Source: Clostridia bacterium (GTDB lineage Bacteria > Bacillota > Clostridia > Christensenellales > Aristaeellaceae). Taken from it: a DNA stretch of 29,419 bases. Position 1 is the first letter of the stretch. Every line of letters starts with the position of its first letter. Of the stretch, positions 5,893 to 27,428 are shown piece after piece. Location of the stretch: positions 1-29,419 of the forward strand of contig JAUNDF010000021.1 of assembly GCA_030526225.1 (NCBI GenBank). The letters are read 5' to 3'. The notes below the pieces were generated by a model. It saw only the letters and a program-made list of their open reading frames with translations, was not told where the DNA came from and did not search any database. The position numbers and the translations under genes are program-made.

Positions 5893-8800
5893 ATGCTGAA
5901 CAAGATGACAAAACTCCGTCAGCGGCTGCTGTGCCTGATGGCAGCCCTTATGCTGCTGATGACAATCCTGCCCGCAGCATCAGGTGCTGATGCACAGCAA
6001 AGCCGGGAGTGCCTTCGGGTGGGCTGGTATCAACTGGATATGTTTCAGGAGGGCATGGGCGATGATGCGCCCAAGAGCGGCTACAGCTATGACTATCTGC
6101 AGAAGGTATCCAATTATACCGGCTGGCAGTATGAATATGTGTACGGCACATGGCCGGAGCTGTTCGGCATGCTGGAGCGGGGCGAAATCGACCTGCTGGC
6201 CGGTGTATCTGCCACGGCAGAGCGGCGGCAGGTGATGCTCTTCCCCGATTCCGCCATGGGATAGGACGTATACTGCCTGTACCGCCATGCGGATGATGCC
6301 GCCCTGTCCTCGGGGGACCGTTCCCTGCTGGCGGGCAAAAAGGTGGGCGGCATTGCCGACAACCGCATGAGCGACATGGCCATGGTCTGGAGCGAGCAGA
6401 ACGGCCTCGGGCTGGAGCCGGTGCTGTTTGAGACACAGGCAGAGCAGCTGGCGGCCTTTGAGCGCGGCGAAGTGGACCTCATCTGCCAGACACAGAGCAA
6501 TGTATCCGGTGTTGTGGGCCTGAGCATGGTGGCCAAGCTGGGGGAGGAGCCCTACTATCTGGCGGTATCCGGCAAACGGCCGCAGCTGCTTGCCCGTTTG
6601 AATACGGCGCTGAACCGTATGTTCTCCATCGAGCCCTTTTTGCTGCAGAACCTGCAGTACGCCAACTATTCCTCTGCCATCACCAGCAAAGATTTGACGG
6701 AGGAGGAAAAGAACTGGGCGGCTTCGCATCCGGTGATGCGGGTGGGCTATCTCAACAATTATCTGCCCTATTCCGCCAAGGGCGAGGACGGCGAGGCCGC
6801 GGGCCTGATGACCGATGTGCTGGCGGGCATCCTGACCGCACTGGGGCTGGATAACCAGGTTCGGGTGGAGTATGTTCCGTCGGACAATTACAACGATATG
6901 ATGGCAGCACTCCGGCAGGGCGAGCTGGATGCGGCCTTCCCGGTGTACAGCCGTCCGTGGGATCTGGAGCAGCTGCAGCTGGCGGCCTCCACGCCGGTGG
7001 TCACCTGCAGTGAAAGCTTTGTGTTCCGCGGCCAGTATGACAAAAACCAGCTGAAGACCATTGCGGTTAACAGCAACAATCAGATGCAGATTGCCTACAC
7101 CCTGCGGACCTTCCCCGGGACGGAGCTGCTGCTGCTGCGCTCCATTGACGAATGTCTGGAGGCCGTGCTGGAGGGCAGGGCGGACGGTACGGTGCTCAAT
7201 CCCCTGCGCACGGAGCTGGTGACCGCAGCAGAAAGTACCGCTCCCTGTCCTATGTGCAGATGGGCACGCAGGACAGCCGCTGCTTCGGCGTAAGGGATAC
7301 GGATACGGCGCTGCTGCTGCTGCTCAACCGCGGCCTGCGGCTGCTGGGCTCCTCCTATGGCATGGAGCATTCCTACAAGTACATCGAGGCACTCAATCCC
7401 TATACCTTTGCAGATTTCCTGATTGACAATATGCTGTGGTTCGGCCTGTTCTTCCTGCTGGTGCTGGTGGTCATCATCACCCTGCTCAGCTACAACCTGA
7501 CCAAGAAGGAGCAGAACATGCGTCAGGTCAACGCTCTCAATGACAAACTGAGCGTGAACCAGCGCAAGCTGCAGGATCAGGTGAACATTGCCGGCGGTCT
7601 TTCCAACGCGTATTTCTCCGTGTATTTCGCTGATTTGGCCACCGGACGCTACAAGGCGGTGAAGGAAATGCCCCGGGTGCAGGAGCTGCTTCGGGGCTGC
7701 CGCACGGTGCAGGAGGCCATGGACATCGGTCTGCCCCACATGATTGACCATGACGATCTGGCGAAGATGCAGGAGTTTACCGACACCGGCACCCTGATTG
7801 ACCGCCTTGGGGACAGCGACAGCATCAGCGCCGAATTCCATTCCGTTGACCCGCAGCGCCCATGGTGCCGCGCCAGCTGGATTGTTGCCGGGCGCGACAA
7901 GGGCGGCGAGGCGGCCTCCGTGCTGTATGCGGTGGAGGATATCACCGCGCTGGTGGGCAAGCGCATGGCCCGCGAAAAGCAGCGCCGGGAGGCGGAAAAG
8001 CTGGAGCGCCTGCGCCTGCAGACCATGACGGAGGCCATCCACGGCAGCTTCAAGCGCGGCTTGAATGATGACGAGTTCACCTTCCTGATGGTTTCCGAGC
8101 AGCTGGCGAAAATGCTGGGCTACGAATCACCCCAGGAGATGATTGATGCCGGCAGCGGCTGCATGATGAACCTGATGGACTTCAGCGACACACGGCACGA
8201 AATCGAGACCGTGCTGAAGGACGTGCACAGCGGCAAGATGTACACCATGCACTACCGCCTGCGCTGCAAGGACGGCAGCTGGAAGAATGTAGAGGACCGG
8301 GGCCGCCTGATTCGCAACCCCGACGGCGTGGAGGAGTTCTGGAGCTTCATCGTCGATCAGGATACGCTGACCAGAACCGAGGAAGCCCTCTCCCGGGCTA
8401 ATCAGGCCAACGCGGCGCTGCAGCAGGCCCAGCAGGAGCTGGAGGCCGCCCGCGACACAGCCGAAAAGGCAAGTCAGGCCAAGAGCAACTTCCTGTTCAA
8501 CATGAGCCACGACATCCGCACCCCCATGAACGCCATCATCGGCTACACAGAGCTGCTGGGCCGCCATCGGGAGGAGCCGGAGAAATTCAGCGACTATCTG
8601 CAGAAAATCCGCTCGGCCAACAGCTTCCTGCTGTCGCTGATTAACAACGTGCTGGAAATGGCCCGCATCGAGGCCGGCAAGATTACCTTCGATGAGCAGG
8701 TGCACCGCCCCGGCAGAATCATGGATGACATCACCGCCGTGTATGAGGAGCTGATGCGGCAGAAGGGCATCGACTTCCGGGTGTCTGTGAGCATTCGCGA

Positions 8801-9185
8801 CCGGCTGATTTACTGCGATTCCCTGAAGGTGAAGGAAATCCTGCTCAACCTTGTTTCCAACGCTTACAAGTACACCCCCGCAGGCGGCAGGGTGAACGTG
8901 GAACTGACGGAGATTCCCTCCATGCGCCCGGGCTGGACCAGCGTGAAAACCGTGGTATCCGATACGGGCATCGGCATGAGCGAGGAATTCCTGAAGACCA
9001 TCTTTGAGGAATTCACCCGGGAGCATACCTTTACCGAAAACAAGATTGAGGGCACGGGCCTTGGCATGCCCATCGTGAAGAAGCTGGTGGAGCTGATGGG
9101 CGGCTCCATCACCGTGGAAAGCACACCGGGCAAGGGCACTGCCTTCACCATAATTATTTCCCCACCGGCTGGCGCAGGAAATTGA
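5893..9185 (+). pseudogene. sensor histidine kinase with a signal peptide, two periplasmic SBP_bac_3-type solute-binding domains, TM, PAS, HisKA and HATPase. It is interrupted by an in-frame TAG (6262-6264) and a 1-nt frameshift near 7232-7234.
   Basis: The standard-code pieces are 5848/5893..6264, 6343..7293 and 7152..9185. Pieces 1 and 2 share a frame, and the text reads straight through the TAG (..LFPDSAMG*DVYCLYRHADD..KKVGGIADN..). Pieces 2 and 3 join if gcagcagaaag(7231-7235) once had one more A (..ELVTAAEKYRSLSYVQMG..). The total length of 3293 nt is 3n-1, which fits one lost base. The TM helix is MLWFGLFFLLVLVVIITLL, the H-box is FLFNMSHDIRTPMNAIIGY, and the N/G boxes are NLVSNAYKYTP, DTGIGM, GTGLGMPIVKKLV and GKGTAF. 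A GGGAGG RBS precedes ATG 5893. Confidence 0.75.
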
Positions 9186-9210
9186 ACAGCACGAGGCCGA
9201 GGAGGAGGCT

Positions 9211-10053
9211 GTGGATGCGGATGCCTTTGCCGGCAAGCGCATCCTGATGGCAGAGGACAACGAGCTGAATGCCGAAATCGCCACAGAGCTGCTGGAAGCC
9301 GTGGGCTTTGAGGTGACATGGGCGCAGGACGGTATCCTTTGTGTGGATGCACTGCGCAAGGCCCCCGCCGGGACCTTTGACCTGATTTTGATGGACATCC
9401 AGATGCCCAACCTCAACGGCTACGATGCCGCAAGGCGCATCCGTGCTCTGGAGGACAGGGAAAAGGCGGGCATCCCCATCATCGCCATGACGGCCAACGC
9501 CTTTGAGGAGGACAAGCGCAACGCCCTGCGGGCAGGCATGAATGCCCACATCCCCAAGCCCATCAAGGTGGACGAAATGCTGAAGACCCTTGGCCGGGTG
9601 CTGGCGCTGAGCAAAATCAACAGCGAGACCTTCCCGGCCTACAAGGCACAGCTGGGGGACTGCGCACCCTTCCGCGCCTTTGAACAGGAACACGCTGACT
9701 GCGGCTGGTTCATCTACGAAGCCTTCGGGGACGAGCGCATCCTCTGTGCGGATGGAGCCCTGTGCCGGATTTTCGGCTGCAGCAGCTTCCGGGAGTTCCA
9801 AAAGGCGGTCTCCTGTTCGTTCAAGACCATGGTGCATCCGGAGGATATCGACCGGGTGGAGGCCGAAATCCGGCGGCAGATTGATGACTCCGGCGACAAC
9901 ATCGACCGGGTCAGCTACCGCATCATCCGCGCGGACGGTCAGGTGCGCCGGGTGGATGACATCGGCCGCAAGGTGCTGCTGCAAGAGGGCATTCCAGTGT
10001 TCTATGTGGGCATTGCGGATGTCACGGGGGAGGAAGACCTCCAACAAGCCTGA
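9211..10053 (+). CDS. response-regulator receiver + PAS domain protein (possibly the frameshifted C-terminal part of the preceding kinase)
   Basis: Receiver motifs are ILMAEDNELNAEIATELLE, DLILMDIQMPNLNGYDAARRIR, PIIAMTANAFEED and GMNAHIPKP. A PAS-like region follows (FIYEAFGDERILCADGALCRIFG...VSYRIIRADGQVRRVDDIG). A GAGGAGGAGG run lies 6 nt upstream of the ATG, but the same frame is open back to 9154 (LFPHRLAQEIEQHEAEEEAV). Removing one base from the ttt/cccc run at 9157-9163 would fuse it to the kinase (..GTAFTIIIPHRLAQE..), like the fused paralogue at 1..803. Confidence 0.8.
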   Translation: MDADAFAGKRILMAEDNELNAEIATELLEAVGFEVTWAQDGILCVDALRKAPAGTFDLILMDIQMPNLNGYDAARRIRALEDREKAGIPIIAMTANAFEEDKRNALRAGMNAHIPKPIKVDEMLKTLGRVLALSKINSETFPAYKAQLGDCAPFRAFEQEHADCGWFIYEAFGDERILCADGALCRIFGCSSFREFQKAVSCSFKTMVHPEDIDRVEAEIRRQIDDSGDNIDRVSYRIIRADGQVRRVDDIGRKVLLQEGIPVFYVGIADVTGEEDLQQA

Positions 10054-10071
10054 AACGGGAGAATATGCTGA

Positions 10072-11676
10072 ATGAAAGAATTGATGTCCTTTTTCGCCGT
10101 CAGCCGGGATGATTACAGCGAAATCCGCCGGGAGGCATGGGAGGAGAGCTGGCTGAGCCTTCGCCTTGTCAGCGCCATTGCCGCCATTGCCTTCGGCATC
10201 ATGACCGGGCTGGGGCTGCTGATGACAAGCTACGGAAAGAACGTGACCATATATGCCGTGTATACGGTGCTGTCGGCGGTCTTCTGGGGTATTTCCTTCC
10301 TGAAGACGGACAGCCTGCCCCTGAAGGCATCGGCCTGCTACGGCTGCTATGCCATGCTGCTGAGCATGGGCATTGTCATGGGCACCCTGATTTCGCCGGA
10401 TATGCTGACCGTCAGCTTTATCGTGATGATGCTGGGCATTCCGCTGCTGTTCACCTTCCGCAGCTGGATTTGCAACGCGGTGATGGCTGTGTGCGTCATC
10501 ATCTACTGCGCGGCGGCCAAATACACGCAGCCGCCTGAAATCTTTTCCGTCAATATGCTCAATGTCATCCCCTACAGCATCATCAGCATGTTTGTTACCT
10601 CCGCCACCATGCGCAGCAAAATGCAGCGCGTGCTGATGCGTACCCGGCTGCAGGCGGAAGAGGAGGCCCGCAGAGCCACAGAGGACAGGATGAACCGCTT
10701 TGACGCGTTTATCACCGACATGGTGCGCTATGCCACCAGCGAGGAGGAGCTGGAGAAGATTGTGGAGCAGCTGGTGGAATACATCGGCGAAAAGCTCCAT
10801 TCCGACCGGGCGTACATCTTTGAGAAAAACGAAAAGGGCGGCTTTGACAACACCTACGAGTGGTGCCGCGAGGGCGTTTCTGCCGAGAAGGACAACCTGC
10901 AAAACGTTCCCTTTGAGGGCGTGATTGAGCCCTGGTACACCCAGTACAAAAAAACGGGCAGCGTGATTATCGAGGACATTGAGGAGTACAAAAAGGTCAG
11001 CCTGCCCATCTACAATCTGTTAAAGCCCCAGGGCGTGGAAACGCTGGTCACCGGCCCCATCATCATCGAGGGCAAAATGGTGGGCTTCTACGGCGTGGAC
11101 AATCCCCCCAGGGACATGATTCACGACATTTCCGACCTCATCTGCGTGATGGAATTCGTGGTGTCCTTCATCATGCGCATCCGCGACAACGCCTCCGAGC
11201 TGGCGTATTCCGCCGTGCATGACCAGCTGACCGGCTGCAAAAACAGAAAGGCGCTGGAATGGCTGTACCGCAAGCAGTATGACGAAAACGGCTCGCTGGC
11301 GGTGCTGATGTGTGACCTGAACAGCCTGAAGGAAATCAACGACCGTCAGGGTCACGATGCCGGTGACAAGTTCATCCGGCGCACGGCAGAGGTGCTGCAG
11401 TCCGTATTCGGCACGGAGCATGTGTACCGCATGGGCGGCGACGAGTTTGCGGCCATCATTGCGGGCATCAGCCAAAAAGAATTCAGCGAAAAGATTGAGC
11501 TCAGCCGCATCCTGCTGGGCAACACCGCCTCCCTTGGCGTTGCCTACCGGGAAACCATGTGCGATGTGGGGTTTGATGCGGTGCTGAAGGACGCGGATGT
11601 GGCCATGTACCACCAAAAGGGCAGCTACTACGCCAATGCCACCGTGGACCGCCGCAGAAGAAGAACAGACGATTAA
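10072..11676 (+). CDS. membrane-anchored GAF-GGDEF diguanylate cyclase
   Basis: 534-aa ORF. About 5-6 N-terminal hydrophobic helices are followed by a GAF-like region (RAYIFEKNEKGGFDNTYEWC...GFYGVDNP). The GGDEF domain has HDQLTGCKNRKAL, LAVLMCDLNSLKEINDRQGHDAGDKFI and YRMGGDEFAAI. Stop is TAA. Confidence 0.9.
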   Translation: MKELMSFFAVSRDDYSEIRREAWEESWLSLRLVSAIAAIAFGIMTGLGLLMTSYGKNVTIYAVYTVLSAVFWGISFLKTDSLPLKASACYGCYAMLLSMGIVMGTLISPDMLTVSFIVMMLGIPLLFTFRSWICNAVMAVCVIIYCAAAKYTQPPEIFSVNMLNVIPYSIISMFVTSATMRSKMQRVLMRTRLQAEEEARRATEDRMNRFDAFITDMVRYATSEEELEKIVEQLVEYIGEKLHSDRAYIFEKNEKGGFDNTYEWCREGVSAEKDNLQNVPFEGVIEPWYTQYKKTGSVIIEDIEEYKKVSLPIYNLLKPQGVETLVTGPIIIEGKMVGFYGVDNPPRDMIHDISDLICVMEFVVSFIMRIRDNASELAYSAVHDQLTGCKNRKALEWLYRKQYDENGSLAVLMCDLNSLKEINDRQGHDAGDKFIRRTAEVLQSVFGTEHVYRMGGDEFAAIIAGISQKEFSEKIELSRILLGNTASLGVAYRETMCDVGFDAVLKDADVAMYHQKGSYYANATVDRRRRRTDD

Positions 11677-11684
11677 CAGGTTGG

Positions 11685-11720
11685 CCCCTTCCGGGTAAAT
11701 TCGGAAGGGGCTGATTTTTT
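11685..11720 (+). terminator. rho-independent terminator after the GGDEF gene
   Basis: A perfect 9-bp stem, ccccttccg (11685-11693) with cggaagggg (11702-11710), has an 8-nt loop and is followed by ctgatttttt. Confidence 0.75.
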
Positions 11721-11743
11721 GTTCATATTCAGTTGACAAACGG

Positions 11744-11752
11744 TGTTATAAT
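11744..11752 (+). promoter_or_regulatory. extended -10 promoter element (TGtTATAAT) upstream of the activase-like gene
   Basis: tgttataat is at 11744-11752, about 95 nt upstream of ATG 11846. The nearby TTGACA at 11733 is only 8 nt from the -10, so it is not a usable -35. Confidence 0.4.
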
Positions 11753-11845
11753 GTACGATGGGCCAATTTTCATTATGAATCCATCAGGGTATCAGGTGAA
11801 AATGCCCGGCTGAAATATAGACAACCAGAAAAGAGAGCATGACTG

Positions 11846-14800
11846 ATGAAAATCTATCACGCAGGAATTGATATCGGTTCCACCACGGTGAAGCTGGTGG
11901 TTGTGGATGATAACGGCCAAATTCTCTTTGGCGATTACAGGCGGCACCATGCCCATACCCGGGAGACGGTTTATGATTTGCTCACCGATGCCCGGGCGCT
12001 GCTGGGCGAGTGCAGCCTGAAGGTAAAAATCACCGGCTCCGGTGCCATCAACCTCGGCAAAGCGCTGGGCATCGGGTTTATTCAGGAGGTGGTGGCGGTT
12101 GCCGCTGCCCTGAACCATGCTGCCCCCCAAACGGATGTGGCCATCGAGCTGGGCGGCGAGGATGCGAAGATTATCTACTTCGCCGGCGGTCTTGAGGAGC
12201 GGATGAACGGCGTTTGCGCCGGCGGCACGGGCTCCTTTATCGACCAGATGGCATCCCTCCTGCAGACGGATGCCGAGGGGCTGAACGAGGCTGCCAAGGA
12301 GTACAGGCAGATTTACCCCATCGCGGCCCGGTGCGGCGTGTTTGCCAAGTCGGATATTCAGCCGCTGATTAACGAGGGCGCCACCAAGGCAGACCTTGCC
12401 GCCTCCATCTTTCAGGCGGTGGTTAACCAGACCATTTCCGGTCTGGCCTGCGGCAAGCCCATCCGCGGCACGGTGGCCTTTCTGGGCGGTCCGCTGCATT
12501 TTCTCACATAGCTTCGGGCGGCCTTTGTCCGCACATTAAAGCTGACGGAAGAGACCGCGGTGATGCCGGAAAACTCCCACCTGTTTGCGGCCATGGGCGC
12601 GGCACTGGAGGCACAGGATGCCGATGCGGTGCCCCTTTCCAACCTGATTGAAAAGCTGCAGTCCGGGGTGAAGGTCAATTTTGAAATGCCCCGTCTGGCT
12701 CCCCTGTTCGGCAATCAGGAGGAGTATGACGAGTTCTGCCGCCGCCACCAAAAGGCAACAGTGAAGCGGGCGGAGCTTGCGGCCTACCGCGGGAACTGCT
12801 ATCTGGGCATTGATGCCGGCTCCACCACCACCAAGCTGGCGCTGATTGGCCAACAGGGTGAGCTGCTGTGGGATTACTACGCCAACAATCAGGGCAACCC
12901 CATCCTGACGGCGCAAAACGCCATCCGTCAGCTGCAGCAGCTTATGCCCAGGGGCGCGGAAATTGCCCGGGCCTGCTCCACCGGCTATGGTGAAGCACTG
13001 CTGAAGGCCGCCTTCTCCCTGGACGAAGGCGTGGTGGAGACCATCGCCCACTGCACCGCCGCCACCTTCTTTGACCCGGCGGTGGACTGTGTGCTGGATA
13101 TCGGCGGTCAGGATATGAAGTGCATCCGGCTGAAGAACGGCACGGTGGACAGCATCATGCTCAACGAGGCCTGCTCCTCCGGCTGCGGCTCCTTTATCGA
13201 GAACTTCGCCACTTCCCTCGGCTATACCGCAGAGGGCTTTGCCAAGGAGGCGCTGTTTGCCGAATCTCCTGTGGACCTTGGCACCCGCTGCACCGTGTTT
13301 ATGAATTCCAACGTCAAGCAGGCCCAGAAGGAGGGCGCATCTGTTGCGGATATCTCCTCGGGTCTGGCATACTCGGTCATCAAAAACGCGCTGTACAAGG
13401 TCATCAAGCTGACATCCCCCGAGGAGCTGGGTCGGCACATTGTGGTGCAGGGCGGCACCTTCCACAATCAGGCGGTGCTTCGTGCCTTTGAGAAAATCGC
13501 CGGTGTGGATGCCACCTGTCCCGATATTTCCGGCCTGATGGGTGCCTTCGGTGCGGCGCTGGTGGCAAAGAACCACCATGCGGAAAAGAGCAGCATGCTC
13601 TCCTTTGATGAAATCCTGAACCTGTCCTATACCGCATCCTCCGTGCGCTGCGGCGGCTGCTCCAACCGCTGCATGCTCACTGTCAACCAGTTCCCCGGCG
13701 GCAGAAAGCACATCAGCGGCAACCGCTGTGAAAAGGGTGCCGGCAATACGGACAAGCAGGCACAGGCACCCAACATGGTGGCCTATAAGCGTCAGCGGCT
13801 GTTTGACTATCAGCCCCTTGCGGAGGATGCTGCCCAAAGAGGCACCATCGGCCTGCCGCGGGTGCTGAGCATGTACGAGAACTATCCCTTCTGGGCCACA
13901 TTCTTCGGCAGCCTTGGCTTCCGGGTGGTGCTGTCCCCCTGGTCATCAAGAAAAATCTACGAGCGGGGCATGGAGTCCATCCCCTCCGAATCGGAGTGCT
14001 ATCCGGCCAAGCTGTCCCACGGCCATGTGCAGTGGCTGATTGATCAGGGCATTACCACCATCTTCCACCCCTGCATCTTCTATGAGCATCAGGAGGCGAA
14101 GAACGCTCAAAACCACTACAACTGCCCCATTGTGGTTTCCTATGCGGAGAACCTGAAGAACAACATGGAAACCATCAGCAGCGGGGAAGTGCGCTACATT
14201 CGCCCCTTTATCGCCTTTACGGATGAAAAAACCGCCGCCGACCGGCTGGTGAAAACGGCGGAAAAGGAATGGGGCATCCCGGCAGGGGAGGTGCGCCGTG
14301 CGGTGCATCTGGCATGGGCCGAGCAGCAAAAGGCCAAGGCAGATATCCGCGCCGAGGGTCAAAAGCGCCTTGCGGAAATGGAAGCCGCCGGCGGCCGCGG
14401 CATTGTTTTGGCCGGGCGACCCTATCACATCGACCCTGAAATCAACCACGGCATTCCGGAGCTGATTGCCTCCTACGGCCTGACCGTGCTGACCGAGGAC
14501 AGCCTGCCCCTGAATGTGGCCCCGGAAAGCACCATCCGCGTGGTGGACCAGTGGGTGTACCATTCCCGCCTGTACAACGCGGTTGAATTTGTGGCCCGCC
14601 GCAACGATCTGGAGCTGATTCAGCTCAACTCCTTCGGCTGCGGTCTGGATGCCGTGACCACCGATCAGGTGAGCGAGATTCTGGAAAAGCACAACAAGCT
14701 GTACACGGCGCTGAAGATTGATGAGGTGAACAACCTTGGCGCGGTGCGCATCCGCATCCGGTCTCTGCTGGCGGCCATGGAAATCCGGCAGGAGAAGGGC

Positions 14801-17273: not shown

Positions 17274-17340
17274 TTCAATACACTCCGTTCGTTTTGTCTT
17301 AACCAGTATAAACGCCCGCGGCCATCCGTTCAATTTACAG

Positions 17341-17362
17341 AAATGTGGCAATTGTCACATTT
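17341..17362. promoter_or_regulatory. 22-bp near-perfect palindrome, candidate TetR operator in the divergent intergenic region
   Basis: AAATGTGgCAATTGtCACATTT has perfect 7-bp arms, a palindromic CAATTG core and one mismatched pair. It sits about 20 nt upstream of the TetR RBS (AAGGAG, 17383-17388) and between the divergent starts at 17273 and 17396. Confidence 0.45.
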
Positions 17363-17395
17363 GGCGGCGGGGCGATGAAGCCAAGGAGCATGACC

Positions 17396-17899
17396 ATGGA
17401 AAAGAACGCGAAGCATTATCTGGCCGAAGCGCTGATTCTGCTGATGAAGGACTCGCCCCTGTAGGAGATTTCCGTCAGCCAGATTGTCCGGCGCGCCGGT
17501 GTATCCCGCATGACCTATTACCGCTATTTCTCCGACAAGGAGGAGCTGCTGCAGTTCTACATGAATTACCTTTTCTCCCTGTTTATGGAGCAGGAGGCGG
17601 TTTCGCATGCGCCCTTCGGCAGCAGGGAGCATGTGCGGGATACCCTGCTGTTTTTTCGGGATTACGGGGACTTTGCCCGGTGCATTTATCGCTCCGGCAA
17701 TGACGGCATCATGCTGCGGATGGTCAACCGCTACATGGCCATGCAGCCCGGCTTTGAAACGGCCAGCGCGGCCAGACGGTACGCCTTTTACTACTACGCC
17801 GGTGCCATCTACAACTGCTATATCGAATGGGCGCTGGAGGATTTTGCAACGCCGGTGGAGGAACTGACCGGCATCATCTGCGCCTTCCCGCGGCCATAA
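17396..17899 (+). CDS. TetR/AcrR-family transcriptional regulator, full length only if TAG 17462-17464 is decoded
   Basis: AAGGAG lies 7 nt upstream of ATG 17396. Translation gives MEKNAKHYLAEALILLMKDSPL*EISVSQIVRRAGVSRMTYYRYFSDKEELL. This is a canonical TetR N-terminal HTH with the TAG just before helix 2. The standard-code ORF (17510..17899) would start inside the HTH at the M of SRMTYY and has no RBS. Stop is TAA. Confidence 0.8.
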
Positions 17900-17948: not shown

Positions 17949-17962
17949 GCGTGTCTTGGTTG

Positions 17963-19495: not shown

Positions 19496-19654
19496 AAATG
19501 TAAGACTATCTATGCTACAGTAATAGTAAATCCAAAGAAGTCGGGTGTAAACGATGAAGGAAATGCTGATAAAAAAGAGAATTTCTTTCCAAAGAAAATG
19601 GCGCTTAATAAACTGGGCGTTAAGCAGATAACAGCAATTATTCAACGAGTGTGA
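19496..19654 (+). pseudogene. 3' remnant of a gene; its last ~23 codons are a diverged copy of the 3' end of the 19722..21227 gene
   Basis: The frame-2 stretch ..NADKKENFFPKKMALNKLGVKQITAIIQRV ends in TGA TAA. The second copy reads ..RRIKYFFPKKMALNKLGVKEIIAFLQRK, also ending TGA TAA. There is no start codon or RBS, and the frame opens right after a TGA at 19493. Confidence 0.4.
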
Positions 19655-19762
19655 TAACAATCAGGTGTTTTGTGAACGCTGTCCTGATGAACGCACAATC
19701 TATCGCAACGAGGTGAATTACATGGGCAATTATCCGCAAACACAGCAGAAAGCTGTTGAACT
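19581..19762. repeat. direct repeat, copy 1 (182 bp, roughly 90 percent identical to copy 2, no indels)
   Basis: atttctttccaaagaaaatggcgcttaataaactgggcgttaag ... caatcaggtgttttgtgaacgc.gtcctgatgaacgcacaatctatcgcaacgaggtgaatta.atgggcaattatccgcaaacacagcagaaagctgttgaact recurs exactly 1573 bp downstream. The repeat spans a gene 3' end, the TGA-TAA stops, the spacer, the RBS and the first 14 codons of the next gene. Confidence 0.9.
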
Positions 19763-21227
19763 CTGCCAGTCCATTCGGCAGAGGCTTGATGAAATCAGAG
19801 CAACTCACATACAGTATAAAAACCGACTTGCCCAGCTTTCAACCACAGCAACGAAAAAGAGCAGAAAAGCTTTATGGTTCACATTGCTCGGCGTATTTTT
19901 AACCGAATTTGTATTTATAATATTCAATATAAGCTTCCTTCTGCTTTTTTGGCTTGAAATTGCGATTGTTGTTATCGGCATTGTAGCAGGTCGGATAGAA
20001 AAGAAAGCAATCGCCAATAAAGAAATCGAATGCATGGTTCAATAGATTCAGCTTCAGAAAGAGAAAGATAAACTTGAAGAGGAATTCCGGGCATGGTCAA
20101 AATGCGAGGATATCCTTTCCCGCTATATGCCGGTCGATGGACAGATTACCGGATAGTCTGTTCATTTTTGGGATGTTTTGCTTGGTCTCGCTGACGGTAT
20201 CAAAGCAGACATATCCAAAGCCTCCCAGCGGAACAATGTCGATAACGACTCAGAATTCGTTTGGAATACACTGCAGCGCATTCGGTTGGCTCCTGTTCTA
20301 AATGCATACCGAAAGGAACGAGTGGAGGCTAAAAAGCAAATTTCGGCTTAGCAACACAATCAGTCGGTTTCTGCGGACACCAGTCAGAAGGAAAGCTCAA
20401 CTGCGGAAAACTCAGCAGCTGATAATGGCGGCAATGAAGCATGTGGCAATGAGAACCCCGGAAGCCAGGTATCAACGTATATTCGAACATTATATGCTTA
20501 GGCTGTACCTGACTATCATGACCAAAGAGAATACTTTAAGTTCCTTTATTCAAAAAATGGCATAGGATTTATTGTAGATTACGAGTACTATAACGGATAT
20601 GCGTCTTTTTCTGCTTTATAGGTACCGGATTTATCATTGAGCAATGATGAACTGCTTGTATATGAATATGAACATAGGGTTTTTTACAGCAACATAGGAG
20701 TTGTTCAAGACGATTATCAGAGCGTCATTGGTCATTTGCCATTATGCGAACAATACATCGTAAAAGCCGATCGTTCGCAAATGAACATACAGACCATTCT
20801 CCTGTTGCTAAAAGCGTATGAATTGTCGGGGAAATCCTTATTCCCATGTCATAACAGCGCTGCACCGCAAAAATCCAATGAAAATCAACAGCAAAAGCCA
20901 ATCAATTTGAAGGGTATGATACAAGTGCAATACTCCCGTACTGCTGTCGGTATGGGTGATGAGTACATGATGGGCATTTACACCATCACGCTGCCAGAAT
21001 CTGCTACTTTAAGCGACCTGATTAATACAGCACTGGACGGCGGGCACGGAAATGACTGGCCAATTGCGCATGTAGTAGGTGACCCGGAGTGGCTTATTGA
21101 GTCTGATCGGGGGACGCTTGCCAGTGTCAGAGCGACAAGCCGTAGAATAAAGTATTTCTTTCCAAAGAAAATGGCGCTTAATAAACTGGGCGTTAAGGAG
21201 ATAATAGCATTTCTGCAACGAAAGTGA
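19722..21227 (+). CDS. hypothetical membrane-anchored protein (501 aa) whose frame contains five in-frame TAG codons
   Basis: GAGGTG lies 6 nt upstream of ATG 19722. The frame has TAG at 20043, 20154, 20349, 20499 and 20619, and no TAA or TGA until the TGA-TAA at 21225-21230. The N-terminus has two hydrophobic helices (ALWFTLLGVFLTEFVFIIFNISFLLLFWLEIAIVVIGIVAG). A coiled-coil-like stretch (QLQKEKDKLEEEF) and a low-complexity linker follow. A C-terminal ~100-aa domain (MIQVQYSRTAVGMGDEYMMGIYTITLPESATLSDLI..) is homologous to the ORF starting at 29309. The standard-code pieces are 19665..20045 and 20637..21227. Confidence 0.65.
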
Positions 21228-21335
21228 TAACAATCAGGTGTTTTGTGAACGCCGTCCTGATGAACGCACAATCTATCGCAACGAGGTGAATTATATGGGC
21301 AATTATCCGCAAACACAGCAGAAAGCTGTTGAACT
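21154..21335. repeat. direct repeat, copy 2
   Basis: This is the same 182-bp unit as 19581..19762, offset by 1573 bp. Similarity stops at 21335/19762. Confidence 0.9.
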
Positions 21336-21342
21336 TTGGTGA
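21295..21342 (+). pseudogene. truncated duplicate of the first 14 codons of the 19722 gene (MGNYPQTQQKAVEL), ending at TGA 21340
   Basis: It has the same RBS and the same ATG context as 19722. The repeat ends after codon 14 and a TGA follows two codons later. Confidence 0.6.
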
Positions 21343-21402
21343 GCTGTCAATCACAAATTTTATTAGATTCCGGTATCAAAGCGCGGCAGAGCCCTGGCAT
21401 GC

Positions 21403-22011
21403 ATGCTGCTGAGCCATATAGGCATAACCGAAGTGAAGCAAGAGCAGCCAAAGCAAAAAACAACTGAAGAATTATAGGTACTGGGTTGTCAATAGGTATA
21501 TCGTAATCTTGTAGAAACCCTTGAGCAAGCAACTCAAGTTTCCGAAGGAAATCTGGCCATGTTGGTTGAAGAACAACTGGTAAAAGATAACGGCCAGACA
21601 ATGACCATTGACGAAATTATGAAACTCACACCATAGGCTAAAGCTCAAAAGGCTGCAAAGGAACTGAAAGCAAGAGAGGAAAGGAAACAAAAACTGTCAG
21701 AGATGCTGGAAAAAATGACAGTGATTGCTGAACGGGCTGACTTTTCCTTCAGCCATGATAGGGCAATAAAGCCGGATGGGCTGCGGTTTGCAGCCAGGTT
21801 TGAAGGTTGTGGCCGTGGCCATGAAGAAACGTATTTAGGCTATGTGCTTAAAGAGGGAATGTATTATTTTTATGAAGAGGACATTGCGCCGTCGGCAGGT
21901 TACTTTACATGGATTGTGTTGACCGTACCGGCATCAGCAATCAGCAACAAGGACGAGCTGAGGATATTGTGCGTTATTTTGGAGAAAAAGAGATTCCCAA
22001 GTCGTTGGTGA
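21403..22011 (+). CDS. hypothetical protein; the frame contains three in-frame TAGs; the start is uncertain
   Basis: Frame 1 is free of TAA/TGA from 21343 to the TGA at 22009-22011 (223 codons) but holds TAG at 21364, 21475, 21493 and 21634. Candidate starts are ATG 21403 (no clear RBS), ATG 21559 (GAAGGA 9 nt upstream) or ATG 21703 (the standard-code ORF). A terminator hairpin directly follows the TGA. Confidence 0.45.
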
Positions 22012-22015
22012 TTTG

Positions 22016-22043
22016 AGACCGGGAGCAGTCCCGGTCTTCTTGT
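22016..22043 (+). terminator. rho-independent terminator
   Basis: agaccggga (22016-22024) pairs with tcccggtct (22029-22037) across a 4-nt loop. tcttgt follows. Confidence 0.6.
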
Positions 22044-22094
22044 ATATCCAAAACCCAACGCTAGATGTGGGGGGAAGAATTTTGGGGTGATTTG

Positions 22095-22103
22095 TGGTAT
22101 AAT
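22095..22103 (+). promoter_or_regulatory. extended -10 element TGgTATAAT upstream of the 22177 gene
   Basis: tggtataat is at 22095-22103, about 75 nt upstream of the ATG. There is no convincing -35. Confidence 0.45.
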
Positions 22104-22176
22104 CATGTTGATATATGTAGCTGGTTCTGTTCTAAATAGTTTTTGAACAATCAGAAGAATATGAAAGGAGAACAAT

Positions 22177-24606
22177 ATGACCGATAAGTTCCTTTCCACT
22201 TTTAATGCAATCTCTGTGCCTTCTGAAAAAATATGGGATTCCGTTTTGAATACTACCGACATGCACTTTTCATCGGATAGCTGGGCCGGTGAAACGGAAG
22301 ACATGCGGCTGGAATGTGATGCTGCGGTGCTCAAGCCCGGTGCTGAAGTGGGACAATCTATCATTCCGTATTTTGGTGCTGATGCAAATCGGTTCTTTGA
22401 AGTGTTTCCGGTTTAGTCTCCTGATTCTGCTGCGGGTAGTGCTAATGTTGCCGCTGCAGAGGATTATGCGGACTGGCTGGATGTGAGTGTGGCTGCATCC
22501 AGCGGGCTGATTGCCGGAATCGTTGATGTGCTGTTTGTTGGCGAATTCTCACTTGACCGTGCAAAGGAATACGGCGAAAAGGATGTCAATAACCTTGTCA
22601 TCAAAACAGCACAGAAATTCGGCTATGACGGAAATAATATCAAGGACGCCATAGAATGTCTGGAGAAGAAGTTTCCATTTAATTCCGATCGTTTGGTGAA
22701 TGAATTTGGCGGAGCGAAACAGCATCACTTATGGGATTTTTCACACCATTTCAGTGTGCTTGGTTTGCTGTGTGCCATCCTGACGCAGTTTACAGGGAAA
22801 GTATTTGGTACCAACAAGGATGGTATATTTATTGTAAGAGAGGTTCCGGATTATCAGATTAAGGGAAAAAACTTTGTTGAAAAAATCCTTTTCGGAACAG
22901 TCAATTGGTTCTTTCATATGGTGAGTGACATGGCAGGGTCTAGTCAGTGCATTGGGCGCGGCACAGGCATTCCCGGTCCGATTGTATCACTGCTGAAATC
23001 TGTTTCTTCTCTGCCGTTTTTCAGGAACAAAAAAATCGGAGAAACTGAGTTCCATACATGGGTGTCAAAGTTATTTAACGGGACACTTCTGGCAAAACGA
23101 AACGCAGACAACAAAATCACAGAATCCATGCCTTTTGACCTGAGAACGGAAATCGGTATTCTACATGAAGGCAGCAGGCAATTGGTTCCCGTATTGATTA
23201 ACGAAGCCATCGTCCGCGGCGTTTACTGCATTCGCCGTTTGTGCCGCGAAATTGAGCAGAAGGATATTCACTCCATTGCTGACCTTGGCAGAATTGACGC
23301 GGAAAAGGTTCTGCCCTTCAACACGCCTGCCATTAAGAGAATGTGTACCATTGCATCCGGTGTGTTCTGCGTGGTTGATTCGGTTGATGCGCTGGTTCAC
23401 TCCTTGGTCGAAAGAAAAGTATCCACATTCTTCCTGCATTTGAATTTTGTTGGTGTGGCAAGATTTGTTTTGGCCATCGGGGATGATTACACTGCATTCC
23501 TGCAGGAAACACAGATCGAACGTGAGAAATCAGAATATAGAAGCTATCGGTTTGAGCGGGAAGTGGCTAAACTTGATTGGTTTGAACTGGATGCTGAACA
23601 AACGCAGCTGCTGTATTCCCTTGAACGGCTGGTATGCCTGCACGATGCCAATAATACAAAAGACGAAAAGAAAAAAGCACAGAAAATCAAATGGCTTCAT
23701 GCATGGGAGGAAAGTGCAGTCAGGAGTCTGCGCTTAGCGCCCGGAGAAGAGCAGCATTACTTCCTTGACGATGAGGAACTGTTCAGAAGATTTTCGTCAG
23801 AGAAAAACGAGAAGACCGCTCGAATGCTGATAACATTAGAAGCAGTCACCTTCAAACCTTATTTCCCGACAAATGAAGATGAAATCGCTGCATGCAAAGA
23901 ACTGAAGCTGGAACATCGTTTTATGGATACAATCTTTCTGCAGCGGCAGCATGCTGTTCAGAGAAAAGAACTGAATGATATTAAGAATGCTTATCAGTGG
24001 TACTATGATGCTTATTCCGGGACAATCCGCAATCGTTGGCTGATTGGAATCGGCACGGCTGCCGCAACTGCGTTGACTGCCGGTGTCGCACTGCATTTTG
24101 CTCCGGCAATTGCCGTTGCTCTTGTGGGAAAGGGTGCAGCTGCTTTATCGGGTGCAGCCTTGACAAGCTTTAGCCTCGCAGCCATTGGTGGCGGTGCGAT
24201 AGCAGCCGGTGGACTGGGAATGGCTGGCGGCACGATGATTATTGCCGGTGGCGGTGCGATTGTTGGATTGCTTGGCGGTGCAACGCTCACGTCTGCGGCT
24301 TCCATGCTGCTGCTCGAGGCAGATGGATATGTGTTGAATGAATGTGCCAAGCTGCTCAGCTACAGCGAGAAGGTGCTTGTATATGAACCCAATGCCGGTG
24401 AGAGAATCAATGCCCTGGCCAACACCATCAGTACCCGACTTGATACCATTAAACAGCGTTTGAACGTTTAGAGAAAGGAATTGTTGAATACGAAAGAGCA
24501 GCAGGCGCGGAAAAAGCAGGAAGACCGCATCAAAACCATTGAAAAAAGCATCGGCTACCTGCAGGAGACGGCCAAAAAGCTGGGTGAGCTGGCAAGGAGA
24601 AGTTGA
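22177..24606 (+). CDS. large hypothetical protein (809 aa) with a C-terminal Gly/Ala-rich (glycine-zipper-like) membrane segment; two in-frame TAGs
   Basis: AAAGGAG lies 6 nt upstream of ATG 22177. TAG 22414-22416 joins the same-frame ORFs 22177..22416 and 22483..24471 (..FEVFPV*SPDSAAGSANVAAAEDYADWLDVSVAASSG..). TAG 24469-24471 is followed by 44 more in-frame codons of helical text (RKELLNTKEQQARKKQEDRIKTIEKSIGYLQETAKKLGELARRS) up to TGA 24604-24606. A strong terminator follows 38 nt later. The C-terminal region IGIGTAAATALTAGVALHFAPAIAVALVGKGAAALSGAALTSFSLAAIGGGAIAAGGLGMAGGTMIIAGGGAIVGLLGG is predicted membrane-inserting. I recognised no family. Confidence 0.7.
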
Positions 24607-24643
24607 GAAAAACAGTACGTAAAGAAAAAATCATATTAACCCA

Positions 24644-24686
24644 AAAGGCTGCGGGGAGTTTTTCTTCCGCAGCCTTTGCTTTATTT
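24644..24686 (+). terminator. rho-independent terminator
   Basis: A perfect 11-bp stem, aaaggctgcgg (24644-24654) with ccgcagccttt (24667-24677), has a 12-nt loop and the tail gctttattt. Confidence 0.75.
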
Positions 24687-24947
24687 GAAGTCGAAGTGGC
24701 GGGATTCGAAGCGAATGTCATATCTGGTTTCAAAGACGGCCACATTAAACTAGGTGTAACTGCAGAAATGACTTCGATGGTGATTTGACCCTGAAAACAA
24801 TTGCATGAAACTACATTCTATTGGTGTTGGGGTGTATTCCTTATACCCCAGTCGATTCCCGCACACTTTTTTGGAATTGGGGTATAATTTGAGAGCGTTC
24901 AGAGCAGTTTTCTTCGTTTCATTATGCATGAAAACGGAGGATAACAT

Positions 24948-25367
24948 ATGCATAATTATGACAACAAACGGCTTCCTGCTGTGATTCAGGACACCGAGAA
25001 TGGGATAACTTACATTCTCAATGGCGACTACTATTTCCCCTTGCTCTGTGATGAGGAGGACGATGAACCGCTTGGACGCTGGGGTTGGATTCGCATGCAG
25101 CATCTGATGGAGAACCATCCCGGTCGCTACTCGTATCTGCTTCTGTCCGGCCAATTGTTCCCACACCTGCGTGAAGTCGAGGAACAGGCCGAGCGTCGGT
25201 TTGATGTGTTGATGGCACAGTTCAAAGTAGCTTTGGGTATCACAGAGAAGCTGAAGGCTGCTGATCAGCTGCGTTGGGTACAGCTGATGAATTCCGCACG
25301 GCACGATGTGGAGGAAATCATCATGGACGAATTGATTTATGATGAAGGAGGGGCTGTGCATGGCTAA
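24948..25367 (+). CDS. tnpV: TnpV-like transposon-encoded protein
   Basis: A GGAGG RBS is present. The 139-aa product has the C-terminal signature GITEKLKAADQLRWVQLMNSARHDVEEIIMDELIY. I recognise this from the TnpV family of clostridial Tn4451-type and related elements, from memory and without a search. Stop is TAA. Confidence 0.7.
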   Translation: MHNYDNKRLPAVIQDTENGITYILNGDYYFPLLCDEEDDEPLGRWGWIRMQHLMENHPGRYSYLLLSGQLFPHLREVEEQAERRFDVLMAQFKVALGITEKLKAADQLRWVQLMNSARHDVEEIIMDELIYDEGGAVHG

Positions 25368-25665
25368 GAAGGTAAACAAACCTGTTGACGAGCAGAATAT
25401 CAACACGTCACATGAGCAGGATCCTGTTTGGGAGAATTGCGGGATGGATTTGAGTATGTATCCCCCTTGCATGAACGCCCAACAGTTGGCTGCTGTTCTG
25501 AAGACTCACGACAAAGCGGTGTATCGTGTCATTAAACGGCATGACTTTTTCCCCGGGTTTAAAGTGTTAGGAGCTGTTCGTATCAGCCGTGATGCCCTGA
25601 TTGACTGGATTGAGCTCCAGTGCAAGAAGCAGTTTGAAGAAGAGGAGGAAGAACAGGATGAATAA
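25360..25665 (+). CDS. helix-turn-helix DNA-binding protein (excisionase/MerR-like HTH) with an acidic tail
   Basis: GAAGGAGGGG lies 6 nt upstream of ATG 25360, which overlaps the TnpV stop. The HTH-like text is MNAQQLAAVLKTHDKAVYRVIKRHDFFPGFKVLGAVRISRDALIDWI. The tail is EEEEEEQDE. Stop is TAA. Confidence 0.65.
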   Translation: MAKKVNKPVDEQNINTSHEQDPVWENCGMDLSMYPPCMNAQQLAAVLKTHDKAVYRVIKRHDFFPGFKVLGAVRISRDALIDWIELQCKKQFEEEEEEQDE

Positions 25666-25876
25666 CCGTGAAACAAAGTTCATGGACGCTTCTGTGAGCG
25701 AGCCGGCTGTGTATACCATAAATGACATCAAGGATATCCTTCAAGTAAGCAGACCAACCGTCGATAAGCTTATTAAGCAGCATGAATTCCCCTGCTTCCT
25801 CTGGTGCGGCAAGTACAGGATTCCAAAGAAAGGTTTTGATGAATGGCTCCGACGGAAGGGAGCGGGCATGCGGTGA
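25658..25876 (+). CDS. excisionase-family helix-turn-helix protein
   Basis: GAGGAGGAAG lies 5 nt upstream of ATG 25658, which overlaps the previous stop. YTINDIKDILQVSRPTVDKLIKQHEFPCFLWCGKYRIPKKGFDEWL is typical of Xis-type HTH_17 proteins. Stop is TGA. Confidence 0.75.
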   Translation: MNNRETKFMDASVSEPAVYTINDIKDILQVSRPTVDKLIKQHEFPCFLWCGKYRIPKKGFDEWLRRKGAGMR

Positions 25877-25884
25877 TTTGTTTC

Positions 25885-26172
25885 ATGCTTAAGTTGACCA
25901 CACGGCTGGTAACTGCTCCGATGATGCTGATGGCTGGCATTATCTACATCATCGGCCATGTGGCAGCATCGCTTTCCTCCCTCGTCACCAATCTGGTGGG
26001 CACTGTTTTCCTCATCGGCTCCTTCTGCTCCTGGCGGATGGGTGTCAACACCGATACCGTTGCACTGATGGTTGTTACCGGCGTGGTTGTCCTGCTGCTT
26101 CCGATGATTGTGAAGGGCCTGCTGTATGCCGGGCTGAAGCTGATAGGGCTGCTGGCAGGATTGGTTCATTGA
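25885..26172 (+). CDS. small hydrophobic membrane protein (about 95 aa, 3 predicted helices)
   Basis: MLKLTTRLVTAPMMLMAGIIYIIGHVAASLSSLVTNLVGTVFLIGSF...VALMVVTGVVVLLLPMIV. The start is uncertain (ATG 25885, GTG 25873 or ATG 25843). Stop is TGA. Confidence 0.55.
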   Translation: MLKLTTRLVTAPMMLMAGIIYIIGHVAASLSSLVTNLVGTVFLIGSFCSWRMGVNTDTVALMVVTGVVVLLLPMIVKGLLYAGLKLIGLLAGLVH

Positions 26173-26187
26173 TTCCTGATAAGATCA

Positions 26188-26277
26188 GGGGTGTGGTCAC
26201 CATGGCCACACCCCTGTGGCCGCCATGGCCACGCTACTGGGGCCACCATGGCACCACCCCGGGGCTATCATAGCCCC
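26188..26277. repeat. GC-rich patch with three CCATGGC(C/A)C motifs about 23-24 bp apart and two inverted repeats
   Basis: The motifs are ccatggccac at 26200, ccatggccac at 26223 and ccatggcac at 26247. One hairpin is ggggtgtgg (26188-26196) with ccacacccc (26206-26214). A perfect palindrome, ggggctat-c-atagcccc, is at 26261-26277. The patch stands out from the surrounding AT-rich DNA. Confidence 0.5.
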
Positions 26278-26410
26278 ACCTCTGGTGTTTTCATGATAAC
26301 GAAATCATTTGAACTCAAATGCAAAAGTTCAGGTCAGTGAAAAAGCCAAGGACGGCTATATGGTTTCCTGAAAGAGCGTGTTTGTTTGGGCCGAAGCAGG
26401 CGTAACACTA

Positions 26411-26446
26411 AAAGTGCTGTATCGAATAGTATCGGTACAGCACTTT
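26411..26446 (-). terminator. strong hairpin terminator after the 26460..27428 gene
   Basis: A stem of about 15 bp is formed by aaagtgctgtatcga (26411-26425) and tcggtacagcacttt (26432-26446), with one G-U pair and a 6-nt loop. It lies 13 nt beyond the TAA at 26460-26462. Confidence 0.65.
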
Positions 26447-26459
26447 CGATTGTGTAGGC

Positions 26460-27428
26460 TTAGGCGAATAAGTCTTCCCAACGAATGATTGATTCTGGCA
26501 GATTGTTTCGGTATTCGGCATAAAAGCTCAAGAGATCTCTTCGTTCTATGTAGTGTATAGATTCATGCTCTATCTCATTATCATAATTCTTTGAACTCGA
26601 AAAAAGAAAAACAGTGAATCCGCTACTTAGGAATCCATCATAGTCTTTGACATTGATAATCCCATCTTTTCCCTTGACCTGCACAACTGCGCGCTAAGAA
26701 TTTCCAAGTTCTCGCGAATGCAGAATACACTCAATCAGCGGTGTGGTTGACTTGTTTGCAATGGAATTTGAGAGCACATACATATTATACCTTACTTGAA
26801 TATAGCTAATAACTAGTTCCTCGAGATCAAAATCCGGCAGACGATCGATTACATCTTGCCCCTGCGACGATTTATCTACGGTGTAAAAATGGCTTTTGGA
26901 AGCAACATTGTAAGCATGTTTAGAAAACTCAATCATAATCTTCTCGCGGTTTCGCTCGACAATGCCGCCTCGAGCCCGAGTAAACATAGCCTTGATTTGC
27001 CCTGGAACATCGGTTCCGTAACGAAACGCATAGACTGGCAAACGAGCGCCTATGTCGTAATCTTTTATGCAATACGGTTCTGCCGCGCCTTTTGCTCTGC
27101 ATATCCAATAGAAGCCGCTACTGTCACGTGTCCAGAACAGATCGTTCTATCCTGCTTCAAGAAAAAGATTTAAAGCAGAATCAATTCGATATTTCTTTTT
27201 CTTTTTTGTTGCTTCAGCTTCTCCTTGTTTTCGTGCAGCATCATAAAAATCTTCGAACCCGGTAAAGCAATTGTCCGGGGTGTGTACACAACTCCAACCA
27301 ATCACCAAGTATTGTTCCTTTGGATTACTTAAGCAATAGCGAAGGACATCAGGTCGTACTTGCTACGCTTGTTCTTTTGTTTCTCCAGGTTTCAGATGAA
27401 TTCGTGCCACAAAATCATTATTTGTCAT
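26460..27428 (-). CDS. hypothetical protein (322 aa), possibly Mrr-like (N-terminal GW-type module + PD-(D/E)xK-like C-terminus); three in-frame TAGs
   Basis: GGAGG lies 6 nt upstream of ATG 27428. The frame holds TAG at 27365-27363, 27149-27147 and 26696-26694 (CTA on the plus strand) and no TAA/TGA until TAA 26462-26460, which the terminator follows. The standard-code pieces 26694..27041 and 26460..26684 share the frame. The nuclease idea is weak and rests only on YLVIGWSCV...DLFWTRDSSGFYWICRAKG and DFDLEELV...PLIECIL...VVQVKGK. Confidence 0.65.

Follow-up and report, generated by a model that had tools for sequence, protein, structure and literature searches.

In-frame TAG codons in four genes of a non-phage island and in three flanking chromosomal genes of a Clostridia bacterium

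Organism-wide reassignment of a stop codon in bacteria is known for UGA, which is read as Trp in Mycoplasmatales and others, and as Gly in Absconditabacteria and Gracilibacteria. To our knowledge, recoding of UAG is known only from phages, prophages and pyrrolysine users. Among the TAG-recoded prophages, Topaz resides in Oscillospiraceae and Garnet in Prevotella, both in standard-code hosts, and just 40% of the phage genomes with TAG recoding were found to encode a TAG suppressor tRNA (Borges et al., bioRxiv 10.1101/2021.08.26.457843). Here we describe a contig of 29,419 nucleotides from a Clostridia bacterium (JAUNDF010000021.1; the whole of this stretch is called the window), in which TAG occurs in frame in four neighbouring genes, designated A to D, of an AT-richer island, and once each in three chromosomal genes that flank it, namely those of a sensor histidine kinase, an activase-related fusion protein and a TetR-family regulator. 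Because the frames of genes A–D are continuous and conserved and are interrupted by TAG alone, their products can very probably exist only if TAG is read through efficiently. The strongest part of the finding is the island genes, not the chromosomal ones.

Like the TAG-recoded prophages (code 15-like), the island is a segment of differing G+C content (GC), here lower, in an Oscillospiraceae-type chromosome. Many of its genes are broken by TAG only, its integration and regulatory genes are TAG-free, and gene calls made under the standard code are fragmented (NCBI pieces P0121, P0241 and P0242). Unlike those prophages, its TAG-bearing genes yielded no phage hallmarks, PHROG match or viral clade (the island being truncated at 29419), and they appear to be cellular genes of defence type. 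There is also no suppressor tRNA in the window, and the alignment columns opposite the TAGs do not indicate Gln, the residue of the known TAG-recoded phages. A further difference is that TAG stands in frame in three chromosomal genes next to the island and at the end of no gene placed on the contig. In organism-wide reassignment of UGA, the codon is absent from gene ends and present at sense positions of conserved genes; here, TAG closes none of 21 gene ends (P ~0.02–0.09) and stands in frame in three chromosomal genes (P = 0.19–0.25), but the codon is UAG, and TAG is very rare in core genes (3 in ~6,300 codons). With pyrrolysine users, which employ a dedicated tRNA(CUA), the locus would share the reading of UAG as an amino acid, but no pyl or methyltransferase genes were found in the window, and the TAGs lie in unrelated genes, mostly at variable positions. 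The single TAGs of the activase, TetR and kinase genes are like isolated in-frame stops with presumed readthrough (Belinky et al. 2021, PMC7918605). A picture of that kind cannot account for genes A–D, four neighbours with 2–5 TAGs each and no stop of another type. At the least, stop-codon recoding takes a new form here, on a non-phage island with putative defence-type genes, and there is an appreciable probability that it is the first sign of a bacterium reading amber as sense.

The in-frame TAGs were checked by re-deriving the reading frames with only TAA or TGA as boundaries. All 16 TAGs listed in a first-pass annotation of the window were present, as was the additional one at 21364. Three of the frames, all on the plus strand, lie in the chromosomal part and contain one TAG each: 5815–7293 (TAG 6262), 11843–16072 (TAG 12509) and 17312–17899 (TAG 17462). 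The island contains four, of which three are on the plus strand, 19632–21227 (TAGs 20043, 20154, 20349, 20499 and 20619), 21343–22011 (TAGs 21364, 21475, 21493 and 21634) and 22165–24606 (TAGs 22414 and 24469), and one on the minus strand, 27503–26460 (TAGs 27365, 27149 and 26696). The observation that no gene ends in TAG was reproduced: the 21 ends that can be placed, 11 of them chromosomal, are made up of 11 TAA, 10 TGA and 0 TAG. Hairpin-plus-T terminators trail the TGA ends of genes B (22015–22038) and C (24644–24677), never a TAG, whereas a third hairpin terminator that had been proposed, at 26411, was negative in a consensus scan.

For comparison, TAG ends 18% of activase orthologues in relatives, and 11–14% of the long open reading frames (ORFs) at the relatives' loci. 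TAG stops had at one point seemed very common in the nearest relative, L005, but the high count stemmed from antisense ORFs, and the pooled share was 11–14%. It may be noted that TAA ends 7 of the 11 chromosomal genes despite a GC content at third codon positions of 0.77, while relatives of similar GC have ~39% TAA and ~47% TGA (P ~0.09). The excess of TAA is approximately the relatives' share of TAA and TAG combined, and it is not significant.

The window belongs to a metagenome-assembled genome (MAG) at NCBI, of which it forms one contig; the locus-tag prefix is Q4C54_. Proteins MDO4483714–MDO4483718 lie on this contig, among them -714, -715 and -718 (Q4C54_04575, _04580 and _04595). SRR24915835 is the sole public run whose contigs carry the window proteins that were looked up. 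Logan contigs, which are an independent k-mer assembly of this run, were 100% identical to the window over 9492–12844 and 21306–26252, and this 8.3-kb identical stretch takes in seven TAGs (12509 and six island TAGs). When the surroundings of the 17 TAGs were compared, no common flanking motif was found. Since the Logan contigs are identical and no flanking motif is shared, the TAG observation is real and not an assembler artefact. A systematic base-calling or methylation-motif error was rejected on the same two grounds, and also because the residues in homologues do not correspond to one base change. The in-frame occurrence of TAG is thus confirmed.

Gene A (19722–21227, plus strand) has 501 codons with five TAGs and ends in TGA. 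It is laid out as an N-terminal membrane/coiled-coil part, linkers and two conserved domains. Its three pieces in 20157–20618 contain no in-frame ATG, just as the first-pass annotation had stated. An exhaustive search with gene A gave relatives at domain level only; among these, P0243 and P0248 align through TAGs 20499 and 20619, and P0274 through TAG 20043. Elsewhere, the C-terminal domain of gene A occurs as stand-alone proteins of ~100 residues (P0244–P0273).

Gene B (21403–22011, plus strand, start uncertain) contains TAGs 21475, 21493 and 21634 and ends in TGA, followed by its hairpin; TAG 21364 sits upstream of its first ATG. The frame 21343–22011 is without TAA or TGA, and the 120 codons 5′ of ATG 21703 likewise carry no same-frame TAA or TGA. 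No homologue of gene B was found in Pfam, PADLOC and PHROG profile scans or in a concatenated-query search, in which genes A, B and D used as one query gave no match. The joined genes had each been credited with a ribosome-binding site (RBS) and an ATG; this did not hold for gene B, where neither an RBS nor an ATG is convincing. A direct repeat of 196 nucleotides (19570–19765 and 21143–21338, plus strand; 93% identity; bounds spanning 19570–21338) bears on this. Its right copy exactly replicates the start of gene A, RBS and ATG, at 21296, and this frame meets TGA 21341 after 15 codons, just 5′ of gene B. Since the copied start of gene A hits TGA 21341 at the end of the repeat, the 5′ end of gene B is a recombination scar. 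In the left copy, at the left edge of the island, a paralogue of gene A survives as a relic of its 3′ end (FFPKKMALNKLGVKQITAIIQRV*), the relic lying at 19570–19654.

Gene C (22177–24606, plus strand; 809 codons, TAGs 22414 and 24469) begins with a good RBS and ends in TGA ahead of its hairpin. The product is BnzB-like and PDC-M09A-like and has a glycine-zipper membrane segment; the PADLOC matches were to BnzB (1.6e-47, partial, profile 161–375 of 504) and PDC-M09A (1.4e-12). Among 1,519 homologues, the nine closest full-length ones (56–61% identity, 812–1,161 residues, 96–100% query coverage) cross both TAGs. The Logan contig L087, identical to the window over 21306–26252, includes the gene. 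Gene D (26460–27428, minus strand; 322 codons) carries TAGs at 27365–27363, 27149–27147 and 26696–26694 and ends in TAA. It belongs to the PDC-S02 family, the PADLOC profile matching with E = 1e-46 over residues 8–321, and has a PD-(D/E)xK-like QVK motif. Homologues on Streptococcus salivarius megaplasmids, with 41% identity over 98% of the length, are in a single piece. It had been considered that homologues of the island ORFs might end where the TAGs stand; for genes A, C and D this was not seen, as full-length homologues of C and D cross the TAG sites and domain-level homologues of A cross three of its five. Lesions other than TAG (TAA, TGA or frameshift) were not seen in genes A–D.

For each gene set, the single-base paths that lead from existing codons to each stop codon were counted. 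Genes A–D contain 13 TAG, 0 TAA and 0 TGA in 1,833 codons. As TAG makes up 37–41% of their one-step nonsense paths, 13 TAGs out of 13 gives P = 2e-6 to 8e-6. With all 13 being TAG and no frameshift present, random decay is excluded; hence, genes A–D evolved where TAG is read. The first-pass annotation had suggested that TAG is translated in whatever carries this DNA, and for the four island genes that suggestion stands, TAG being their only interrupting codon and homologues of A, C and D spanning TAG sites.

The residues opposite the TAGs were then compiled from homologues. TAG 6262 of the kinase gene faces K in one homologue of 30% identity, TAG 12509 of the activase gene faces E in 103, Q in 16 and A in 1 of 120 homologues, and TAG 17462 of the TetR gene faces A, from EthR only. 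In gene A, S stands opposite TAG 20043, R/W/C opposite 20499 and P/I opposite 20619. In gene C, the column of TAG 22414 holds D/V/T/S/N and others, and that of 24469 holds L/M/I in close homologues and F in distant ones. In gene D, TAG 27149 faces E/L/K and TAG 26696 faces R, while TAG 27365 falls inside an insertion relative to the homologues. No inserted residue could be assigned from these columns, in line with what had been expected from the window alone. Gln is not favoured, since Q appears only at the activase site, where E is far more frequent; most sites are variable, so this comparison has low power.

Of the chromosomal genes with TAG, that of the sensor histidine kinase (5893–9185, plus strand; two SBP_bac_3, PAS, HisKA and HATPase by Pfam) ends in TGA, and its TAG (6262–6264) falls in the first SBP_bac_3 domain. 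It had been described as interrupted by TAG alone; this was incorrect, as there is also a 1-nucleotide frameshift near 7223–7240. The homologue L164 (1,096 residues) aligns in frame +1 through the TAG, and then in the −1 frame after ~7185–7239. The gene of the acyl-CoA dehydratase activase-related fusion (11846–16072, plus strand) has 1,408 codons with one TAG (12509–12511) and ends in TAA. Its ORF is unbroken in 31 of the 31 relatives among the matches listed (67.5–81% identity, aligned over 1,350–1,415 residues), where the TAG column is occupied by GAG, GAA or CAG, and a Logan contig is identical to the window through this TAG. From distances to outgroups, the amino-acid divergence of the window copy is only ~2–3 points above that of sister lineages. 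Such a mild excess indicates that the activase has not been dead for long, and long-standing pseudogenisation was rejected on this basis. The gene of the TetR-family regulator (17396–17899, plus strand; Pfam TetR_N) has an AAGGAG RBS and ends in TAA. Its TAG (17462–17464, codon 23) lies inside the N-terminal helix-turn-helix domain, 22 codons past the good RBS and ATG, and an alignment with EthR crosses it.

Two 1-nucleotide deletions were observed in short homopolymers (GAAAG; GGCCCCTG), one in the kinase gene (7185–7240, plus strand) and one in the gene of a CotH protein (18425–18440, minus strand). The latter splits the protein between FFGP and LWDFDY. Homologues of both the kinase and CotH carry on in the shifted frame past each deletion, and the two frameshifts represent either real pseudogenes or consensus errors.

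The island also contains genes without TAG. A module at 24948–26172 (plus strand; Pfam, PHROG) consists of TnpV, two excisionase-like HTH_17 genes and an ORF of 109 residues, and the presence of TnpV with the two excisionase-like genes suggests a mobilisable element. A Fic/DOC gene (27679–28881, minus strand; 400 codons, ending in TAA) matches Fic in Pfam and SoFic in PADLOC (1.1e-32). Going by the PADLOC family profiles, which mostly stand for candidate systems, genes C, D and Fic would be of defence type.

For the window as a whole, we tentatively favour, at slightly less than an even chance, the reading that decoding of UAG acts at the level of the host cell, either through a constitutive or frequent suppressor or as a young reassignment. 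A tRNA with a CUA anticodon, encoded outside the window, would likely compete with termination by RF1 or replace it. Decoding at host level would account for one TAG each in three intact-looking chromosomal genes, and for the absence of TAG from 21 gene ends with TAA as the commonest stop at 60% GC. The higher TAG density of genes A–D would follow from their AT-richer composition and, probably, from a longer time in an amber-reading gene pool, and the island modules without TAG (TnpV with the two HTH_17 genes; Fic) would have arrived recently. It is also possible, and we hold this with less assurance, that the host reads UAG genome-wide, by a young reassignment or by a fixed strong suppressor together with a weakened RF1. 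In that case TAA would by now have replaced the former TAG stops, and TAG would be starting to enter core genes. In a possible variant, the trait would have been forced on the host by a mobile element with amber recoding that resides in it.

Composition was taken into account by means of the TTG/CTG ratio, a control for T versus C at codon position 1, which was 0.08 for core genes and 0.49 for genes A–D. By this control, composition explains ~6-fold of the 15-fold gap in TAG density between the two sets. The argument that a 15-fold gap excludes host-wide decoding was set aside, ~6-fold of it being compositional. Genes A–D are nearer to an 'equilibrium' usage of TAG than core genes, the gap being modest given the three counts.

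A number of results weigh against decoding at host level. The chromosomal genes contain 3 TAG and 0 TAA or TGA in ~6,275 codons, but TAG accounts for 57–62% of their nonsense paths, so that 3 out of 3 gives P = 0.19–0.25, and two 1-nucleotide frameshifts occur in the same 19 kb, one of them in the TAG-bearing kinase gene. The lack of TAG stops is marginal, P(0/21) being about 0.07, in a range of ~0.02–0.09 given the 11–18% of relatives. Hence, the extension of TAG translation to ordinary chromosomal genes, as originally proposed, is not established. Within the island, TAG occurs 0 times in 922 codons of the other genes (TnpV, two HTH_17 genes, the 109-residue ORF, Fic and a 75-residue ORF) versus 13 times in A–D (P ~9e-4), an unevenness that is closer to the switchable recoding of phages than to a code in uniform use. 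When all available homologues are compiled, no single residue fits across the TAG columns. The window contains no tRNA (ARAGORN, 0) and no Rfam family (full scan, 0 at E <= 0.1). The tRNA with a CUA anticodon that had been proposed as a check is accordingly missing from these 29 kb, the island running past 29419; as the contig ends inside the island, a suppressor tRNA could lie beyond the window. In a screen of 250,000 genomes, every known bacterial code change involves UGA (PMC8629427).

Much of this would be expected if recoding were switchable and restricted to the element, in a host that uses the standard code, with the chromosomal TAGs being nonsense mutations and the lack of TAG stops being due to chance. 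We consider this possible, though on balance doubtful. TnpV, the excisionase-like HTH_17 genes and Fic would be needed in the standard-code state, hence TAG-free, and A–D would be made only with a suppressor tRNA, supplied either by the part of the element beyond the window or by a recoded phage in the same cell. A precedent exists in a 23.7-kb TAG-recoded Topaz prophage in Oscillospiraceae, which has a GC shift at its borders and a TAG-free integrase (bioRxiv 10.1101/2021.08.26.457843); here, the closest activase relatives are from Oscillospiraceae and Candidatus (Ca.) Faecousia, and the GC of the island is 0.42–0.50 versus 0.55–0.64. The heterogeneity of TAG inside the island, the fit of the chromosomal TAGs to nonsense mutation with two frameshifts adjoining, and the room for a tRNA beyond the contig end point the same way. 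Restriction to the element would, however, require that 4 of the 11 chromosomal genes be broken, including the 1,408-codon activase that is intact in all listed relatives, and phage relatives of the island genes are scarce. Genes A–D have no PHROG match, no relatives came from scans of viral contigs in which pieces of A, pieces of D and Fic served as queries, and the protein search of phage genomes gave no match for gene D and one weak match for gene C. Five relatives of gene C do occur in viral contigs, none of them with in-frame stops. The DNA of the window matched none of 50,697 phage records, and none in a plasmid collection. There are no phage structural genes, and no integrase or tRNA is in view, within the window, the island extending past the contig end. 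Nor does any TAG column favour Gln. Another reading confined to the island, in which A–D are defence or toxic effectors of a standard-code host, silenced by their TAGs and translated only once an infecting TAG-recoded phage brings a suppressor tRNA, so that the codons would form a tripwire against alternative-code phages, is unlikely. The PADLOC families (BnzB and PDC-M09A for gene C, PDC-S02 for gene D, SoFic for the neighbouring Fic) and the concentration of TAGs in A–D would suit such gating, and since the TAGs are mostly at variable or inserted positions of homologues, any inserted residue would be tolerated; for phages, Borges et al. (bioRxiv 10.1101/2021.08.26.457843) have floated the sensing of suppressor tRNAs. 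On the other hand, a literature search found no precedent for in-frame stops in defence systems, SoFic is likewise of defence type and is without TAG, the families involved are mostly candidate systems, and the chromosomal TAGs and missing TAG terminators would be left unexplained.

That TAG is untranslated, the genes being decaying pseudogenes or the stops being errors of sequencing or assembly, is very unlikely. Stop codons that occur singly in frame are common among annotated bacterial genes (PMC7918605), and the window has blemishes of its own, namely the homopolymer deletions that break kinase and CotH, the recombination scar at the 5′ end of gene B and the relic gene end at 19570–19654. 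Yet five nonsense codons in one gene would mean that it died long ago, and other lesions would be expected in it, whereas A–D have 13 TAGs and no TAA, TGA or frameshift. A mix of lesions typical of pseudogenes was not found in A–D; the chromosomal genes, with 3 TAGs and 2 frameshifts, are compatible with one. Error is further countered by the Logan identity over 8.3 kb, by the lack of a common motif, and by the homologue residues (K, E, L, R, D and others), for which a single systematic miscall, C to T for instance, would not account. Pyrrolysine decoding via pylT/pylS, as in some anaerobic Bacillota and in archaea where every TAG codon is read as pyrrolysine, is a sub-case of host-level decoding as regards the identity of the residue, and is most unlikely. 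The lineage is one of anaerobic Clostridia, some of which carry pyl genes, and a lysine derivative would be loosely compatible with the K, R or E that homologues have in several TAG columns, but other columns hold L/M/F, P/I or D/T. It also counts against it that the known pyrrolysine-using bacteria have in-frame TAG only in a few methyltransferase genes, and that scans of the window (ARAGORN, Pfam, Rfam) detected no tRNA, pyl gene or methylamine methyltransferase.

Host-wide decoding, if true, would make this the first natural bacterium with amber reassigned, a counterpart of the engineered RF1-free E. coli, and would bear on the origins of reassignment, be it through codon capture, through mobile-element-driven suppression or otherwise. 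Decoding restricted to the island, if true, would extend stop recoding from phages to a non-phage mobile island of defence genes, and would make it conceivable that toxic or defence genes are gated by amber codons. Under either reading, annotation with the standard code split at least seven genes, and the NCBI records include pieces of 107, 196 and 660 residues.

The two parts of the window differ in composition. GC is 55–64% from position 1 to ~19.4 kb and 37–50% from ~19.5 kb to the contig end, with a drop from ~0.57 to ~0.42 near 19.3–19.6 kb, at the left edge of the island. The GC-rich part codes for a hybrid kinase fragment, a TIR-Sel1 protein, an ion-channel/RyR protein, the large sensor kinase, a response regulator, a GGDEF protein, the activase fusion, a nitronate monooxygenase-like protein, the TetR regulator and CotH. 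Its minus-strand stretch at 906–5911 has a defence flavour, with TIR-Sel1 (906–2303), a 612-residue protein without assigned function (2300–4138) and an Ion_trans_2 plus RyR-domain protein (4172–5911). Defence-island-like gene content is thus present on either side of the GC boundary, at 906–5911 (minus strand) and at 22177–28881.

The best relatives of the activase, 80–81% identical, are from uncultured Clostridiales, Oscillospiraceae and Ca. Faecousia MAGs. The species was not found among GTDB representatives, where a scan of genome contigs gave 81% for the best activase relative with synteny not conserved, nor in a metagenome collection, where the best match of the GGDEF protein was 51%. 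Apart from the run mentioned above, exact-protein look-ups with window proteins gave no match.

The true start of CotH is at about ATG 19323 (minus strand), with a signal peptide (MMKKLIWLLALLVMLPCIALG). A longer CotH ORF, from TTG 19470, and the TAG at 19512 belong to the region upstream of the gene and are noncoding. A tandem repeat of 22–23 nucleotides (TGTGGCCACCATGGCCACACCCC) is present at 26192–26280, 3′ of the 109-residue ORF, and more copies of it are found in L087 (4948–5096); the array was either collapsed in the MAG or is variable in the population. The contig ends inside a further copy of the C-terminal domain of gene A (~29290–29419, plus strand; MITIIYGRDSVCMGDDANNGLYTITMPDDALLGDFIR), so that the island holds a small family of this domain.

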